Origin: a virus
Lineage: Duplodnaviria; Heunggongvirae; Uroviricota; Caudoviricetes
Length of the DNA stretch: 20,624 nucleotides
IMG/VR virus record: IMGVR_UViG_2563366839_000008
Reading direction: 5' to 3' (one strand)
Shown here: positions 4,364 to 19,550 of the stretch, piece after piece
Layout of the letters: the number at the start of each line of letters is the position of its first letter
Position numbering within the stretch: the first letter of the stretch is position 1
Translations under genes and position numbers: made by a program
Notes under the pieces: model-generated
Told to the model about the DNA's origin: nothing
Database searches by the model: none
Seen by the model: only the letters and a program-made list of their open reading frames with translations

Positions 4364-4537
4364 TATCGCGTCCTCAACAATGAATTTTGTGATGCGGTGC
4401 CTGGTGCCTCCAGGTGACGTTAACCAGTTAACAATTAACGCCGGATACAGAGAATCCACCCATAACACTGTTTTTGGTTTTAACTGTTCCGCGTGCGCTC
4501 AGCCGCATTCACCACATCACAAAATTCACTTTAAAAA

Positions 4538-4590
4538 GGGCGGCAGAGCAGTCACGGAGTAAAACTGATACCGCCAAACGTCACCAGAAA
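4538..4590 (-). ncRNA. dicF: DicF small RNA (53 nt; antisense regulator of ftsZ and other mRNAs)
   Basis: Minus strand reads TTTCTGGTGACGTTTGGCGGTATCAGTTTTACTCCGTGACTGCTCTGCCGCCC followed by TTTTT, matching recalled DicF including its 3' terminator hairpin (GGCGG/CCGCC). Upstream of dicB as in the Qin dicB operon. Confidence 0.85.
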
Positions 4591-11478: not shown

Positions 11479-11689
11479 AAACGGTTTGCGGGAAAAGGAG
11501 AGTTAAGTAGAATTGCAGCGGGTGCTTGAGGCTATCTGTCTCAGGCATGAACACCAAAAGGCAGATAGAGAAAAGCCCCAGTTAACATTACGCGTCCGGC
11601 AAGACGCTTAACATTAATCTGAGGCCATATCTATGCTCTACACACGTAGGTTAGCCTCTTACGTGCCGAAAGGCAAGGAGAAGCAGGCT

Positions 11690-11845
11690 ATGAAGCAGCA
11701 AAAGGCGATGCTAATCGCCCTGATCGTCATCTGTTTAACCGTCATTGTGACGGCACTGGTAACGAGGAAAGACCTCTGCGAGGTACGAATCCGAACCGGC
11801 CAGACGGAGGTCGCTGTCTTCACAGCTTACGAACCTGAGGAGTAA
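11690..11845 (+). CDS. hokD: Hok/Gef-family type I toxin (HokD/RelF-like), 51 aa
   Basis: Translation MKQQKAMLIALIVICLTVIVTALVTRKDLCEVRIRTGQTEVAVFTAYEPEE matches recalled HokD; SD AAGGAG 8 nt upstream. Structured leader at 11480-11689 and a 3' hairpin at 11853-11877. Confidence 0.85.
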   Translation: MKQQKAMLIALIVICLTVIVTALVTRKDLCEVRIRTGQTEVAVFTAYEPEE

Positions 11846-14410: not shown

Positions 14411-15457
14411 GTGCGGGTATTACTTCGACCTGTTCTGGTACCGGAACTCGGGCTGGTGATCGTTAAGCCGGGCCGTGAATCCATGCCGGTATTCCACAAT
14501 ACCCGGGTACTGGTGGAGCCGGAACCGAAAAGCATGCGTAATCTGCCGTCCGGGGTCGTTCCTGCCGTTCGCCAGCCGCTGGTGGAAGACAAAACATTGC
14601 TGCCGTTTTTCAGTAACGCACGGGTAATTCGTGCTGCTGGTGGTGCTGGTGCATTGTCTGACTGGCTGTTGCGCAATATTAAATCCTGCCAGTGGCCACA
14701 CGGCGATTATCATCACAGCGAAACCGTTATTCACCGTTATGGTACCGGCGCAATGGTGTTGTGCTGGCACTGCGACAACCAGCTGCGTGACCAGACATCC
14801 GAATCACTCGAGCAACTTGCTCATCAAAACCTGTCAGCATGGATGATTGACGTCATCGGTCACGCAATAAGCGGTACGCAGGAGCGTGAATTATCTCTGG
14901 CTGAATTATCCTGGTGGGCGGTCCGCAATCAGGTGGCGGACGCGCTACCGGAAGCGGTATTACGTCGTTCGCTGGGGTTGCGTGCGGAAAAAATCCGCTC
15001 AATGTACCGTGAAAGCGACATCGTACCGGGAGAGCAGACCGCCACCAGCATACTGAAGCAGCGCACAAAAAATCTTGCGCCGCTGCCTCACGCCCACCAG
15101 CAAAACCCGCCACAGGAAGAGACGGTGGTCAGCATTGCCGTTGATCCTGAGTCTCCGGAATCTTTCATGAAACGACCTAAACGTCGCCGCTGGGTTAACG
15201 AGAAATACACACGCTGGGTGAAGACACAGCCGTGTGCGTGTTGTGGTAAGCCAGCCGACGATCCCCATCACCTGATTGGTCATGGTCAGGGCGGAATGGG
15301 GACAAAATCTCACGATATTTTCACGCTACCGCTGTGTCGGGAGCATCACAACGAGCTTCATGCGGATACCGTGGCATTTGAAGAGAAGTATGGTTCCCAG
15401 CTGGAGCTGATATTTCGTTTTATCGATCGTGCGCTGGCAATAGGCGTACTGGCGTAA
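14411..15457 (+). CDS. ydfU: YdfU-like protein (DUF968) with C-terminal HNH-like Cys/His motif
   Basis: 348 aa, GTG start after GGAGG. C-terminal CACCGKPADDPHHLIGHGQGG...CREHHNELH resembles an HNH/zinc-finger nuclease fold. Sits upstream of Q as in Qin-type prophages. Confidence 0.65.
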   Translation: MRVLLRPVLVPELGLVIVKPGRESMPVFHNTRVLVEPEPKSMRNLPSGVVPAVRQPLVEDKTLLPFFSNARVIRAAGGAGALSDWLLRNIKSCQWPHGDYHHSETVIHRYGTGAMVLCWHCDNQLRDQTSESLEQLAHQNLSAWMIDVIGHAISGTQERELSLAELSWWAVRNQVADALPEAVLRRSLGLRAEKIRSMYRESDIVPGEQTATSILKQRTKNLAPLPHAHQQNPPQEETVVSIAVDPESPESFMKRPKRRRWVNEKYTRWVKTQPCACCGKPADDPHHLIGHGQGGMGTKSHDIFTLPLCREHHNELHADTVAFEEKYGSQLELIFRFIDRALAIGVLA

Positions 15458-15470
15458 GTGGAGAACGAGC

Positions 15471-16223
15471 ATGAACCTTGAAGCCTTACCGAAATATTAC
15501 TCCCCAAAATCTCCAAAATTGAGCGATGACGCACCGGCGACAGGCTCTGGTGGTTTAACAATTACGGATGTAATGGCTGCGCAGGGGATGGTGCAGTCGA
15601 AAGCACCGCTTGGGTTTGCCTTATTCCTGGCAAAAGTTGGTGTTCAGGATCCTCAGTTTGCGATTGAAGGTCTGCTCAATTACGCGATGGCACTGGATAA
15701 CCCGACATTGAACAAATTGAGTGAAGAAACCCGGTTACAGATCATCCCTTACCTTGTGAATTTTGCCTTTGCTGATTATTCCAGGTCTGCGGCAAGTAAG
15801 GCTCGCTGTGAGCATTGTGCTGGTACTGGATTTCATAATGTATTGCGCGAAGTGGTGAAACACTCCAGAAGCGGGGAATCTGTTATCAAGGAAGAGTGGG
15901 TGAAGGAACTGTGTCAGCATTGTCATGGTAAGGGAGAAGTCAGCACAGCGTGCAGAGGGTGTAAGGGTAAAGGTATTGTCCTGGATGAAAAAAGAACCCG
16001 GCTTCATGGCACGCCTGTTTATAAGGTTTGTGGGCGTTGCAATGGAAACCGGTTTAGCCGTTTACCAACCACACTGGCGCGGCTTCATGTCCAGAAGCTG
16101 GTACCAGACCTGACGGATTATCAGTGGTACAAAGGATATGCAGATGTCATTGATAAACTGGTTACAAAGTGCTGGCAGGAAGAAGCATATGCAGAGATAC
16201 AATTGAGAAAGGTGACAAGATAA
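15471..16223 (+). CDS. Late-gene antitermination protein Q (phage 21/82 QuuQ-type), 250 aa
   Basis: SD GGAGAA upstream. Cys-rich zinc-binding region (CEHCAGTG...CQHCHGKGE...CRGCKGKG...CGRCNG). Followed by a promoter, a short leader and an intrinsic terminator, the classic PR'-qut-tR' layout. Confidence 0.8.
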   Translation: MNLEALPKYYSPKSPKLSDDAPATGSGGLTITDVMAAQGMVQSKAPLGFALFLAKVGVQDPQFAIEGLLNYAMALDNPTLNKLSEETRLQIIPYLVNFAFADYSRSAASKARCEHCAGTGFHNVLREVVKHSRSGESVIKEEWVKELCQHCHGKGEVSTACRGCKGKGIVLDEKRTRLHGTPVYKVCGRCNGNRFSRLPTTLARLHVQKLVPDLTDYQWYKGYADVIDKLVTKCWQEEAYAEIQLRKVTR

Positions 16224-16253
16224 ATGGTTTTCGCCGAAGATGACGACATGATG

Positions 16254-16354
16254 CTTGCGTTTTTCAAAAAATATGGATAAGATTTTCACAACGATGGGCT
16301 TTGTATGTCTACCGTTGATAAGATTTAAGAACCCGCCACTGAGCGGGTTTTTTT
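16254..16354 (+). promoter_or_regulatory. Putative late promoter PR' with qut region and tR' intrinsic terminator
   Basis: Candidate -35 TTGCGT (16256-16261) and -10 TAAGAT (about 16278-16283); terminator hairpin ACCCGC-CACTGA-GCGGGT plus seven T's at 16331-16354, roughly 50 nt downstream. Confidence 0.5.
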
Positions 16355-16476
16355 GTACCTGTAAACTTGGTGCAGTACAGTAAACACGCTGGTGGTCGTG
16401 AATACTGACTTTTTATCTTGCTGGCTTTTTAGACAAGAGTTATTGGTATGTCATGTTAACCAGAAGGGAAAAAGAC

Positions 16477-16680
16477 ATGCTAAAACAGCAAGATATGACA
16501 GAAACCGCCGCCGCAGTCCTTCATTTCTTACCTGCTGACAAGTGGGTAACGCCACGCATGATGACGAGAACTACCGGAGTAAGCGAAGCCCGGTGCCAGT
16601 TAATACTGACTCAGTTAGTTCTGGCGGGGCTGGCGAAGGATAACGGCGGGTACGGGAATAAATTCAGACGCTGCCAGTAA
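16477..16680 (+). CDS. Hypothetical small protein, 67 aa (first ORF downstream of tR')
   Basis: ATG at 16477 with SD GAAGGGA; the track ORF begins at 16453. Possible small helical DNA-binding protein; no confident assignment. Confidence 0.45.
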   Translation: MLKQQDMTETAAAVLHFLPADKWVTPRMMTRTTGVSEARCQLILTQLVLAGLAKDNGGYGNKFRRCQ

Positions 16681-16830
16681 TGGCGGTTTCCTGCTGTGAA
16701 AATGGGCGGCTGGTGGGTGTTGGTAGCACCTGCCAGCCATTCGCTCATGCTTACTGGTCACAAGCGAACCACGGCCCACTGCTTTAGCGCAAAAGCAGAG
16801 TGAGCCTACCAGAGTTACGCTTACTGATCC

Positions 16831-17892
16831 ATGAAAAATACTGTAAAAATAAACAGTGTTGATTTAATCAACGCTGATTGCCTGCATTTTATTCAGTCCC
16901 TGCCTGATGATTCCATTGACCTGATTGTTACCGATCCGCCGTACTTCAAGGTGAAACCCAACGGCTGGGACAATCAGTGGAAAGGGGACGAAGATTACCT
17001 TAAGTGGCTGGACCACTGTCTGGCCCAGTTCTGGCGGGTGTTAAAACCTGCCGGAAGCCTTTACCTGTTCTGTGGGCATCGCCTGGCATCTGATATTGAG
17101 ATCATGATGCGTGAACGTTTCAACGTGCTTAACCATATCATCTGGGCGAAGCCGTCCGGACGTTGGAATGGGTGTAATAAAGAAAGTCTGCGCGCATATT
17201 TTCCTGCCACAGAGCGCGTTCTGTTTGCTGAACATTACCAGGGGCCATATCGCGGCAAAAGTGACGGCTATGTAGCAAAAGAAAGGGAACTCAAACAGCA
17301 CATAATGGCACCGCTGATATCGTATTTCAGGGATGCTCGTGCCGAACTGGGTATAACGGCAAAACAAATTGCCGAAGCCACAGGTAAGAAAAATATGGTT
17401 TCCCACTGGTTTGGTGCCAGTCAGTGGCAGTTGCCGAATGAGGCTGACTACCGGAAGTTACAGGCACTGTTTTCCCGTATAGCGGCAGAGAAGTTTCAGG
17501 AACAACAACTGGAACAACCACACCACCAGTTGGTGGCATCTTATGATTCACTGAATCGCAAATATTCTGAATTGCTGGATGAGTTTAAATCTCTCCGGCG
17601 CTATTTCTCCGTATCAGTCTCCGTGCCTTATACCGATGTCTGGATGCATAAACCCGTTCAGTTCTACCCGGGTAAACATCCGTGTGAGAAACCGGCGGAT
17701 ATGCTCAGGCAAATAATCAATGCCAGTAGTCGACCCGGCGATCTGGTTGCTGATTTCTTTATGGGATCCGGTTCCACAATAAAAGCAGCAATGGCGCTGG
17801 GGCGTCGGGCGTTAGGTGTTGAGCTTGAGACAGAGCGGTTTAATCAGACCATCCAGGAAATCAGTATGTTATCAGCAAATACAATTTTGTGA
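16831..17892 (+). CDS. Orphan phage DNA methyltransferase (amino-MTase, beta-class: DPPY motif IV N-terminal, FxGxG motif I C-terminal)
   Basis: Motif IV LIVTDPPY near the N-terminus and motif I DFFMGSGST near the C-terminus; internal HTH-like segment GITAKQIAEATGKK. No adjacent restriction endonuclease gene. Weak SD. Confidence 0.85.
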   Translation: MKNTVKINSVDLINADCLHFIQSLPDDSIDLIVTDPPYFKVKPNGWDNQWKGDEDYLKWLDHCLAQFWRVLKPAGSLYLFCGHRLASDIEIMMRERFNVLNHIIWAKPSGRWNGCNKESLRAYFPATERVLFAEHYQGPYRGKSDGYVAKERELKQHIMAPLISYFRDARAELGITAKQIAEATGKKNMVSHWFGASQWQLPNEADYRKLQALFSRIAAEKFQEQQLEQPHHQLVASYDSLNRKYSELLDEFKSLRRYFSVSVSVPYTDVWMHKPVQFYPGKHPCEKPADMLRQIINASSRPGDLVADFFMGSGSTIKAAMALGRRALGVELETERFNQTIQEISMLSANTIL

Positions 17893-18134
17893 ATTAATTC
17901 AATTATTGGTGGGATGTCTGTGCCGTATAATGATTACAGATACAGTGTATCCTGCAATGCAGCAGGGCTGATGTGGTGGGTTGTACATAGCCTGCAAAGG
18001 ATTGGCTTCATTAATTCATCGTTGATACAAGCGAGTCACGGTTGACCACGCCAACGGCTCATCGGTAAAAATCCGACACCGTGTCTTCTTAACTCACTTA
18101 TTGTTTCCACCCATGTTTTTGGATACCTGCTGTA

Positions 18135-18173
18135 GCTGTCAGATTAGCGCGATAATCTGACAGCTTTTTTTTT
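18135..18173 (+). terminator. Strong Rho-independent terminator
   Basis: GCTGTCAGATTAGCGCGATAATCTGACAGC followed by nine T's. Confidence 0.7.
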
Positions 18174-18464
18174 ACAACGAATCCTTCTGATCTGCTTTTG
18201 CGGGGCTTTTTTGTATCCGCTCCATGCCCGGCGTATAAGCGGAGGTTGGTCAGTTTTCTAAAAATTGAAATACCTCACAATTCAGCCAGTTAATGGTTGT
18301 TTGTCTGGCGAAGAGTTTGTAAATAAAAAAACGCATGGTGAATCCCCCTAAGCGGCGGGGCGAATCAGCAGTCAGTTCTGGGATAATCGCGGGTTCGTAT
18401 GCTGATGCCGGACTCACCGGGAGGCACCCGGCACCATGCATCATGGTCATCCCCTTGTATGATA

Positions 18465-18488
18465 CCCCTCTCCGGAGGGGTATTTTTT
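18465..18488 (+). terminator. Rho-independent terminator
   Basis: CCCCTCTCCGGAGGGG hairpin followed by TATTTTTT. Confidence 0.55.
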
Positions 18489-18920
18489 GGATAAAAAAGC
18501 CCGCGCTGGGAGGCACGGGCGGCAAGGAATAAAACGTGAAGAAATTTTCACAGGCGCATAATAATCCGATGTTGCCAGATTTTGCAACTGCATCATCTGG
18601 TTATTATGTGAGCTGGAAAATCAGATTCTGTATGGACTGAAGCCATGCTGTTATTTAGGGCCAAAGAGCTGGCTTTTTCCCGCCTTCTCTCCAGTAACGA
18701 TTAATGAGAAAAGAATGAAATGCTTTTCCTGGGGAGGAGGGCAGTAGAAAAAAGAACCCGCCAGCAAAAATATGGGGGATGAACAGCTTTTGCTACTCAG
18801 GTTGCTGGCGGGTATGGTTCTTCATGAAATAAGAATGTTACGCGGTATTTTTAATGAAAATGATAATTATTGTCAATTGGTTGTGCGTATTTTTTCATAC
18901 ATGACTGGTAAAGGTGATTC

Positions 18921-18952
18921 AGGCCATCAGAGTTTTGCTGATGGCCTTTTTT
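18921..18952 (+). terminator. Rho-independent terminator immediately upstream of the holin gene
   Basis: AGGCCATCAGAGTTTTGCTGATGGCCT followed by TTTTTT. Confidence 0.6.
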
Positions 18953-18985
18953 CTTTCCGGTAGCACAGGTCTGTTGGGGCGGGAT

Positions 18986-19201
18986 ATGTATCAGATGGAA
19001 AAAATATCAACAGGCATTGCCTACGGCACCTCCGCAGGCAGTGCTGGCTACTGGTTTTTACAATGGCTTGATCAGGTTAGTCCGTCTCAGTGGGCTGCGA
19101 TTGGTGTACTGGGAAGTCTGGTTCTGGGCTTTCTGACTTATCTGACGAATCTGTACTTCAAAATCAGAGAAGACAGAAGAAAGGCTGCGAGAGGAGAGTA
19201 A
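18986..19201 (+). CDS. Class II holin (phage 21 S21-type pinholin) with dual-start motif
   Basis: Translation [71 protein letters not shown]. Two in-frame ATGs (18986, 18995), as in the S21 holin/antiholin pair. Upstream of a SAR endolysin. Confidence 0.85.
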
Positions 19202-19205
19202 TATA

Positions 19206-19550
19206 ATGGTCCAAAACTATGAAATGATTGTGAAAGGGATCCGCAATTTTGAGAATAAAGTTACGGTAACTTTAGCATTACAGGACAAAGAACGCTTTGA
19301 CGGTGAAATTTTTGACCTGGACATCTCGCTGGACCGTGTTGAAGGTGCCGCGCTGGAGTTTTATGAGGCAGCAGCCAGAAGGAGCATCAGACAGGTCTTC
19401 CTGGATGTTGCTGCCGGGTTATGTGGAGGGGATGAGCAGTCGCCGGAAAAGCGCCCCATAATTTTAGAGGCGCAGAGTGTGTGGATAACCTACAAAGGAA
19501 AACTGCCGGGAAGAATTACTGGTTCACTGAAGACTCCGCCGAAATGGTAA
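19206..19550 (+). CDS. ydfR: YdfR-like protein (DUF1327), 114 aa, between holin and endolysin
   Basis: SD GAGGAG upstream of the ATG at 19206; same position as ydfR between essQ and rrrQ in Qin. Confidence 0.6.
   Translation: MVQNYEMIVKGIRNFENKVTVTLALQDKERFDGEIFDLDISLDRVEGAALEFYEAAARRSIRQVFLDVAAGLCGGDEQSPEKRPIILEAQSVWITYKGKLPGRITGSLKTPPKW

Follow-up and report, generated by a model that had tools for sequence, protein, structure and literature searches.

An accessory place in lambdoid late operons has been termed the "moron slot" (Juhala et al.; Tree et al.), and in eight prophages of the enterohemorrhagic Escherichia coli (EHEC) strain Sakai convergent pairs of small RNA (sRNA) genes were found downstream of the late promoter pR' and between a moron coding sequence (CDS) and the next phage open reading frame (ORF) (Tree et al. 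2014). The subject of the present analysis is the interval at positions 17893 to 18985 of a 20,624-nt stretch of tailed-virus DNA (IMG/VR record IMGVR_UViG_2563366839_000008; "the window" denotes this whole stretch), which separates a DNA methylase gene from the gene for a class II holin. We regard it as likely that this interval is an accessory (moron) slot in a lambdoid late operon controlled by the antiterminator Q, and that it carries small-RNA rather than protein genes.

Several RNAs from comparable places have been described. STnc100, also known as EcOnc27 and sRNA103, lies 75 nt downstream of stx2B in Stx2 phages; it is Hfq bound, and strain EDL933 has 11 copies, one of which (STnc100_4) was confirmed by Northern blotting, in addition to RNA sequencing in EDL933, while EcOnc27 was recovered by cross-linking and analysis of cDNA with Hfq (Hfq-CRAC). 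Overexpression of STnc100 raises the fimZ and espA transcripts, and a 2026 preprint by Zhu, Shabalina and Storz links it to PasD, an sRNA validated by Northern blotting whose stability is Hfq dependent. In enteropathogenic E. coli (EPEC), PasA (minus strand, 743499-743415, 85 nt) lies between an esterase gene and a class II holin gene and is likewise Northern validated and Hfq dependent; the same EPEC slot is the place of PasA, PasC and an RNA of prophage PP4 that is listed under the spurious CDS E2348C_1013, abundant and Hfq-dependent. STnc100 and the convergent-pair layout are thus already known from EHEC and EPEC prophages, and most of the interval is ordinary. Comparison with other loci shows it to hold an STnc100 gene, a back-to-back member of the EcOnc08/21/42 family (sRNA B), a self-contained minus-strand unit of promoter, hairpin and U tract (sRNA C), and a terminator before the holin gene (Table 1).

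An STnc100 gene and its convergent partner

An earlier note, made from the letters of the sequence alone, had read the interval as noncoding and rich in terminators, had suggested that it might encode sRNAs or anti-sRNAs, and had named an Rfam scan as a way to check. That scan returned a full-length STnc100 match inside the interval (RF02076, 114.5 bits against a cut-off of 47, E value 9e-25, 18304-18492 on the plus strand, model positions 1-206 of 206). An independent covariance model, R1, which comprised five diverged STnc100 variants together with PasD1 and PasD2 and from which the sequences of the window were excluded, scored 96.8 bits (E 6e-25) at 18333-18441. Seventeen distinct STnc100 variants, when aligned, share a scaffold of 110 nt that extends from GCAUGGUGAAUCCCCC to CACCGGGAGGCACCCGGCACCAUGC and is followed by a 3' part that differs wholly from lineage to lineage and ends in a lineage-specific terminator; an upstream block, CTCACAATTCAG...GAGTTTGT, is also kept across the variants. 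Sequence comparison thus establishes that the late strand carries a bona fide STnc100 gene. If its 5' end corresponds to the one mapped for PasD2, GCAUGGUG, the RNA would begin at G18333, and the candidate promoter TTGTTT-17-TAAATA fits this 5' end. Because the mapped PasD seed (UGUGAG) sits in exactly the variable 3' part, the corresponding 18441-18460 would be the seed of the STnc100 in the window.

The STnc100 gene faces sRNA B on the minus strand, with the two terminators back to back at 18461-18492 (+) and 18520-18493 (-). The sRNA B region (18493-18569) is 81% identical over 86 nt (E 1e-15) to a part of prophage PP6 of EPEC strain E2348/69 (L006, 3299-3383; L-numbers denote the related loci compared, L006 being PP6, L004 the PP4 prophage of the same strain and L088 Sakai Sp4), and this PP6 match corresponds to E2348C_1409.E2348C_1408.IGR, an sRNA reported by Pearl Mizrahi et al. 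(2021). sRNA B also aligns to L088 2939-3011, which is the published EcOnc08 interval in Sakai Sp4 (1179938-1180010). Among the four diverged copies compared, which are those of the window, Sp4, L025 and L010, the conserved columns are the seed UUCCUUGCC (CCUUGCC, invariant), the TATTAT hexamer of the candidate promoter (also invariant) and the terminator, and the predicted fold is far more stable than shuffled sequence (z-score -5.1). The RNA-interaction (RIL-seq) partners of the PP6 sRNA, which are the cfa 5' untranslated region (UTR; 767 chimeras), dppA, emrA, tir and others, share the motif GGCA(A/G)GG (Pearl Mizrahi et al. 2021), to which the CCUUGCC seed is complementary, and they include transcripts from the LEE (locus of enterocyte effacement). 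Members of this family were found in 1,108 of 5,426 complete genomes and were never annotated. These alignments place sRNA B, as a new member, in a family that is already known but functionally uncharacterized, and the convergent STnc100-B order recurs in Sp4, PP6, L010 and L025. The STnc100 match and this minus-strand neighbor, which aligns to the EHEC and EPEC sRNAs, lend support to the sRNA or anti-sRNA reading of the earlier note.

The 3' end of sRNA B is firm and its 5' end is uncertain. Homology of the window to the longer published forms stops ~95 nt from the 3' end, at ~18587, and because the published EcOnc08/21/42-type homologues measure 182-271 nt, the TTGCAA-18-TATTAT start, which would give an RNA of ~60 nt, is just one possibility and may be internal or alternative. 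AgvB and AsxR, the anti-sRNAs that occupy such a place in other prophages, were considered as an identity for sRNA B and rejected: no Rfam match to either (RF02702, RF02703) was found at E values up to 5 in 16200-19250, and the sequence family is a different one. Separately, a 32-nt imperfect palindrome (72% complementary) at 18544-18621 is centered on the self-complementary TTGCAA that serves as the -35 element of sRNA B, and a mirrored TATTAT lies on the plus strand at 18602-18607 with a spacer of only 14 nt; this may or may not mean anything.

Terminator-like sites are enriched in the region: a consensus scan gave 13 of them in 16000-19400, where shuffled sequence gave 3.5 ± 1.8. The three intrinsic plus-strand terminators of the earlier note are where it had put them (18134-18165 followed by T9, 18461-18484 by T6 and 18921-18947 by T6). 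Two of the hairpins are far more stable than shuffles (z-score -5.2 for 18100-18176 and -2.8 for 18890-18956), and the one at 18461-18484 falls within the STnc100 model match. Two further sites had been overlooked, a minus-strand terminator at 18520-18499 and a weak fourth plus-strand site at 18191-18204. The first reading is refined in strand and in gene count, in that two elements would be transcribed against the late operon.

A candidate small RNA upstream of the holin gene

The second of these elements, sRNA C, comes out of the long inverted repeat that the earlier note had placed around 18760-18815. The repeat is real: ACCCGCCAGCAA (18756-18767) pairs with TTGCTGGCGGGT (18802-18813) over 12 bp at 100% complementarity, and because a T run follows it only on the minus strand (TTCTTTTTTCT), it would terminate minus-strand transcription. 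The hairpin folds with a z-score of -5.4. All but the three innermost of the 12 pairs of the main stem are invariant among the variants, and two decayed copies carry uncompensated mismatches. Little or no variation is seen in the U tract or in the interior of the hairpin, whose inner stem has a GAAA cap (AAAA in the copy of the window). The TTGACA -35 element is invariant in seven of seven sRNA C variants.

The unit sits on the minus strand in an intergenic place, antisense to the late operon and upstream of the holin gene (18986), which is the position and orientation of PasA. The same TTGACA element is present in PasA, PasC and the PP4 RNA, and the GCCAGC terminator arm, which all four RNAs share, is invariant in an alignment. 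In the 5' arm of its terminator, sRNA C carries GCCAGCAAC, which may be compared with the PasA seed GCCAGCACC (eight of nine positions); the resemblance of sRNA C to PasA and PasC is positional and architectural. We term sRNA C a PasA-position analogue and not a family member because BLAST finds no link between them. The four PasA-type sequences gave no sensible alignment for a covariance model of homology to sRNA C, and a pattern search of 82 holin-upstream regions returned known copies only and no further PasA-type sequence. The RIL-seq signal reported under E2348C_1013 (1060613-1060654, minus strand; log2 fold change -2.9; partners entC and nlpD) corresponds to the terminator of the unnamed PasA-position sRNA of PP4, which lies at L004 3106-3215 on the minus strand (NC_011601 1060605-1060714).

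sRNA C is widely distributed. At 85-100% identity, the unit is present in 1,427 of the 5,426 complete E. coli genomes (26%), in prophages, plasmids and island remnants, including 642 plasmid places; it lies ~390 nt from iss on ColV/IncF plasmids and occurs as a remnant flanked by insertion sequences that adjoins pap in the sequence type 131 (ST131) strain EC958. Among species-representative genomes, one each for 185,579 bacterial and archaeal species, it is limited to Escherichia and Shigella. It belongs to a 360-nt module (18589-18956) made up of a conserved spacer, sRNA C and the pre-holin terminator, and on roughly 580 plasmids, most of them conjugative, this module is ~390 nt away from iss, with holin to Rz deleted between the two. 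Throughout the prophages, ColV plasmids and island remnants, the sRNA C DNA is kept at 85-100% while the overlapping ORFs are broken. On the inspected plasmid pG749_1 (IncF; L087 4001-4362), the module is near iroBC, and the EC958 remnant is near papI (other loci, L091 and L090). sRNA C has no Rfam family, and its exact 17-nt strings occur in no searched paper. On this comparative evidence, sRNA C is a plausible, widely distributed candidate that is found neither in Rfam nor in the searched papers.

The rest of the interval and its late-operon setting

The interval is 100% identical to sequence in more than 100 complete E. coli chromosomes, and the host element is a lambdoid prophage common to 123 complete genomes of extraintestinal pathogenic strains, IHE3034, APEC O78 and PMV-1 among them. 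The positions of all features are collected in Table 1.

Table 1. Features of the interval and of its surroundings (positions in the window)
Feature	Position	Strand	Remarks
DUF968 gene	14411-15457		
Q antiterminator gene	15471-16223		PF03589, E 7e-53
Candidate late promoter pR'	16255-16283	+	TTGCGT, 17 nt, TAAGAT; read from sequence, directly 3' of Q gene
Candidate tR' terminator	16321-16352	+	AACCCGC-CACTGA-GCGGGTT + T run; would end ~60-nt pR' leader RNA
Small ORF	16453-16680		
N6/N4 DNA methylase gene	16831-17892		PF01555
Interval under study	17893-18985		Between methylase and holin genes
T1 element	17893-18190	+	TATAAT 17926-17931; hairpin 18134-18165 + T9, strongest of region
Weak terminator-like site	18191-18240	+	TCTGCTTTTGCGGG + T run; left edge of block homologous to other prophages; consensus scan
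Candidate STnc100 promoter	18297-18325	+	TTGTTT, 17 nt, TAAATA; read from sequence, unflagged by consensus scan
STnc100 sRNA gene	18333-18492	+	Scaffold 18333-18440, variant-specific 3' part 18441-18460, terminator 18461-18492
sRNA B	18493-18551	-	5' hairpin, single-stranded UUAUUCCUUGCC seed, GC-rich terminator 18520-18499 + U6
Candidate promoter of sRNA B	18558-18587	-	TTGCAA, 18 nt, TATTAT; scan score 9/12
Conserved spacer travelling with sRNA C	18590-18740		83-85% identity in plasmid, pathogenicity-island and prophage copies
sRNA C candidate	~18841 to 18745	-	~97 nt; long hairpin 18756-18813 (12-bp perfect GC-rich stem) + U6
Predicted promoter of sRNA C	18847-18876	-	TTGACA, 18 nt, AAAAAT; 10/12, top sigma-70 match of scanned region, ~30 nt upstream of unit
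T3 terminator	18921-18953	+	Intrinsic; hairpin 18921-18947 + T6, 38 nt upstream of holin ATG; T3 ends 33 nt before ATG
Class II (P21 S type) holin gene	18986-19201	+	PF04971, E 1e-35; PGAP annotation; opens lysis cassette

On the 3' side of the holin gene follow DUF1327 and then a lysozyme gene (PF00959). The holin starts MYQMEK (18986-18997), with two methionines three codons apart; this may be compared with the dual-start motif of P21 S (MKSMDK in L069), of which the lysine is absent here.

From their position and from the known organization of lambdoid late operons, we infer that 16255-16352 is a pR'/tR' pair, and the DNA from ~16290 to the lysis genes would therefore form one Q-dependent transcription unit. 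The consensus scan does not flag the candidate pR'. The candidate tR' is a 10-bp hairpin ahead of a U run, ~40 nt after the pR' candidate (fold of 16290-16356, z-score -2.9), which two runs of the terminator scanner did not catch, probably because greedy extension of the stem through A-T and G-T pairs consumes the T run. Many related loci keep the sequence at 16286-16353 at 78-80% on the 3' side of Q, and a mosaic junction recurs at 16330. The idea in the earlier note that the interval might hold structures for Q read-through fits the plus-strand terminators, which would have to be read through for the lysis genes to be expressed because the interval is downstream of Q and of this promoter/terminator pair; it does not fit the long inverted repeat, which would be the terminator of a minus-strand sRNA.

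The T1 element, next to the methylase gene, has a perfect -10 TATAAT and no -35 element; strain JML285 has a 72% identical copy that retains the TATAAT as well as two internal hairpins. The element is rare (142 of the 5,426 genomes), and it is either the 3' UTR of the methylase gene with its terminator or a separate RNA of ~235 nt. Two other identities were rejected. As a diverged STnc100/PasD paralogue, T1 reaches just 17.6 bits in Rfam (E 0.11-0.83) and is not matched by R1; as a decayed tRNA cluster, it fails in that Smith-Waterman scores of 17893-18135 against the three-tRNA clusters of L088 and L027 stay within the shuffle range and neither ARAGORN nor Rfam finds a tRNA in it. The statement of the earlier note that there are no tRNA genes was borne out, with none found by ARAGORN in the whole window and no Rfam tRNA match at E values up to 10. 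The segment 18194-18237, at the weak terminator-like site, is homologous to L027, L029, L062 and the sequence that comes after the tRNAs in Sakai Sp4; in other prophages, too, it follows tRNAs. The spacer at 18590-18740 has no conserved ORF and no fold signal (z-score -0.9 on the plus strand and -0.3 on the minus strand). svsR, a prophage sRNA of strain NC101, was compared as well and is unrelated to the interval; it sits at the 3' end of cI.

At the right-hand end, hairpins related to T3 stand at -37 to -40 in PP4, PP6 and L010, and a terminator-like hairpin lies within 150 nt upstream of the holin in 55 of the 82 holin-anchored loci, with unrelated sequences. The most economical reading is that T3 acts as an insulator that would be passed only by Q-modified polymerase. 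In L069 (3330-3510), a 99% identical methylase gene is followed by one terminator, with the holin ~70 nt later, and in L027 (2330-3500) the slot holds three tRNAs, a TerB-like gene and a small membrane ORF. Since both share the methylase backbone and lack the sRNA cluster, the 1.1-kb block is an optional, presence/absence element. Homology blocks in different relatives end at 18190, 18265, 18440, 18589 and 18995, which are the edges of the predicted units.

Elsewhere in the window, Rfam finds a full-length sok antitoxin RNA (117 bits, 11520-11695, plus strand) and DicF (77 bits, 4538-4589, minus strand). The STnc100/PasD scaffold model also matches 4392-4515 (minus strand; 23.4 bits, E 6e-5), directly downstream of DicF, with GGUGAAU...CACCUGGAGGCACCAGGCACC; this segment, with DicF, is present in 4,630 of the 5,426 E. 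coli genomes and is unannotated there.

Competing explanations and comparison with known systems

In the model that we favor, the sRNA genes would be transcribed in the lysogen from their own sigma-70 promoters, and Hfq would stabilize the RNAs by way of the 3' hairpin and U tail. Short single-stranded seeds would let them act on host mRNAs or sRNAs in trans; these seeds would be CCUUGCC in sRNA B, 18441-18460 in STnc100 and GCCAGCAAC in the 5' arm of the terminator in sRNA C. T1, the STnc100 terminator and T3 would keep uninduced transcription from the lysis genes, and after induction, Q-modified RNA polymerase from pR' (~16290) would pass all terminators to reach holin, lysozyme and Rz.

Several points weigh against this model. 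Transcription, Hfq binding and targets are read across to this locus from homologues; the promoters are at the level of consensus matches, and promoter-like sites are unenriched as a class (6 against 5.0 ± 2.3 in shuffles). The length of sRNA B is uncertain, the ~60 nt predicted standing against the far longer homologues. For sRNA C, neither the seven variants nor the search of the species representatives gave any covariation, pairs being invariant or broken, and 18735-18885 has no BLAST match to L003, L004 or L005 (E 1e-3, word size 7), so that a sequence link to PasA and PasC is missing; its retention on plasmids could reflect hitch-hiking with iss and not selection. In addition, ~450 nt (the T1 element and 18590-18740) falls outside what the model explains.

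That the interval instead encodes the small proteins WP_000972071.1 and WP_000502162.1 strikes us as barely credible. Both ORFs are annotated in RefSeq genomes by PGAP, as hypothetical proteins; the first of them, the minus-strand ORF antisense to STnc100 (18250-18444), matches phrog_24488 (E 1e-6), the sole family match in the interval; and ribosome footprints have been recorded on some EDL933 copies of STnc100. None of the eight ORFs of 31-90 amino acids in the interval has a Pfam match, however, and the frames are not kept, which agrees with the judgment of the earlier note that there is no convincing CDS. The 63-amino-acid PGAP ORF at 18772-18963 (+) has ATT in place of ATG and a frameshift from a 1-nt indel in copies that are 85-88% identical. 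Under the phrog_24488 match, the same conserved DNA reads PRRLGGFTM in one STnc100 variant and PPHRGIHHA in another and contains stops in others, while the plus-strand ORF that opens at the AUG conserved in GCAUGGUG has between 8 and 65 amino acids across variants and is unconserved past the first hairpin. PHROG and PGAP families on conserved RNA genes are an expected artifact, and we rejected small proteins on this evidence; from the comparison of variants, WP_000972071.1, WP_000502162.1 and phrog_24488 seem to result from the calling of ORFs on DNA that is conserved for its sRNAs. PasD1 and PasD2 in E2348/69 have similar antisense "CDSs" over them.

The remaining alternatives concede the RNA features and differ over what they do. 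One holds that the interval is purely cis regulatory, a series of Q-sensitive terminators that insulates the lysis cassette, with the sRNA-like RNAs as by-products that have no trans function. The three to four plus-strand terminators within the late operon, the pre-holin hairpins of unrelated sequence in 55 of 82 related loci and the single terminator retained between methylase and holin in L069 all speak for it, and by-product RNAs of antitermination do exist, StxS being an example. We consider it quite improbable nonetheless, since two of the five strong terminators are oriented against the late operon and have their own promoters, the ~110-nt STnc100 scaffold is conserved far past the needs of a terminator, and homologues of STnc100/PasD, of sRNA B and of the PasA-slot RNAs form Hfq-dependent chimeras with host mRNAs. 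The trans partners, which are many both for PasA and for the EPEC homologue of sRNA B, also make it unlikely that sRNAs B and C act mainly in cis, that is, that by their perfect complementarity to the late transcript upstream of the holin they damp early or leaky lysis through transcriptional interference or RNase III cleavage. Both do occupy the opposite strand within the late transcription unit, the predicted sRNA C promoter would direct transcription away from a position 110 nt upstream of the holin, and RIL-seq has recorded a plus-strand RNA opposite the PasA precursor. The persistence of sRNA C beside iss, on plasmids and islands that have no holin, would be pointless for a purely cis element unless those copies are decaying, and two copies in holin-less contexts do carry stem mismatches. 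A cis role is compatible with trans action as well, and it is a possibility that sRNAs B and C double as antisense brakes on the late or lysis transcript. Finally, much of the interval might be functionless recombination debris at mosaic joints, to which the homology breaks listed above, the rarity of T1, the featureless spacer and the missing covariation of sRNA C would all be congenial. The block boundaries coincide with predicted promoter-to-terminator units, though, the seeds, the -10 and -35 hexamers and the terminators are the best-conserved columns, and the homologues are expressed; we hold this explanation to be very unlikely.

A slot of small-RNA genes in the Q-controlled late operon remains the best explanation overall. 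For annotation, the interval is better labeled as STnc100, an EcOnc08-family sRNA and a candidate sRNA than as hypothetical proteins. The convergent-sRNA moron architecture described for EHEC and EPEC is seen here in a prophage of extraintestinal pathogenic strains (ExPEC), with an STnc100 copy whose 3' sequence, the presumed seed, is lineage specific and with a partner, sRNA B, whose seed is identical to that of the EPEC sRNA that pairs with the cfa 5' UTR and LEE transcripts. sRNA C is the sole element that is absent from the searched literature, and its occurrence in one in four complete E. coli genomes, as well as on virulence plasmids that bear iss, makes it a potentially informative ExPEC target. 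More tentatively, and with considerable doubt, sRNA C and its 360-nt module might represent an undescribed Hfq-type RNA family of Escherichia and Shigella that has spread beyond prophages, a virulence-plasmid riboregulator and not a phage relic; host targets would in that case be reached through GCCAGCAAC or through the highly conserved hairpin interior.

Set beside the known systems, the operon logic is that of lambda 6S RNA and StxS, the pR'-tR' leader RNAs, in which a constitutive late promoter is followed at once by a terminator and read-through depends on Q. The leader candidate at this locus is 16255-16352, 1.5 kb upstream of the interval, whereas the RNAs predicted inside the interval would start at separate promoters and do not count as pR' leaders. 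The late-region cluster of Sakai Sp4 (ileZ-argN-argO) has three tRNAs, in contrast to the stretch between moron and STnc100 here, which has neither tRNAs nor recognizable remnants of them. With the STnc100 family, the locus shares the full-length model match, the stem GCAUGGUG/CACCAUGC that closes the structure and the hairpin CCGGGAGGCACCCGG, as well as the place on the late strand after a moron and before the lysis genes and the possession of a terminator of its own. It differs in its 3' 50 nt (presumed seed and terminator), which are lineage specific and unlike the Sp4, L025, L086 and PasD versions, in a promoter spacer that is 4 nt shorter, and in its upstream neighbor, which is the methylase gene with the T1 element and not stx, tRNAs or DUF3927. 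sRNA B resembles EcOnc08/21/42 (EHEC Sakai Sp4 and Sp15) and the EPEC PP6 sRNA in the 81% identity of its 3' 86 nt, the same seed and the GC-rich terminator with U6; the published RNAs run to 182-271 nt, whereas the window offers a sigma-70-like start for one of ~60 nt. With AgvB and AsxR, it has in common the minus-strand place in a convergent pair downstream of pR', those too being short RNAs with a variable 5' seed. sRNA C, for its part, shares with PasA and PasC (EcOnc51/52 in EHEC) and the PP4 RNA the minus strand, the place between the last moron and a class II holin, the TTGACA element and the GCCAGC arm. It departs from PasA and PasC in a much longer hairpin, which has a 34-nt conserved interior with an inner capped stem, and in its spread: it has 642 plasmid places, whereas the survey from the Storz group counted 12 plasmid hits for the Pas sRNAs as a whole.

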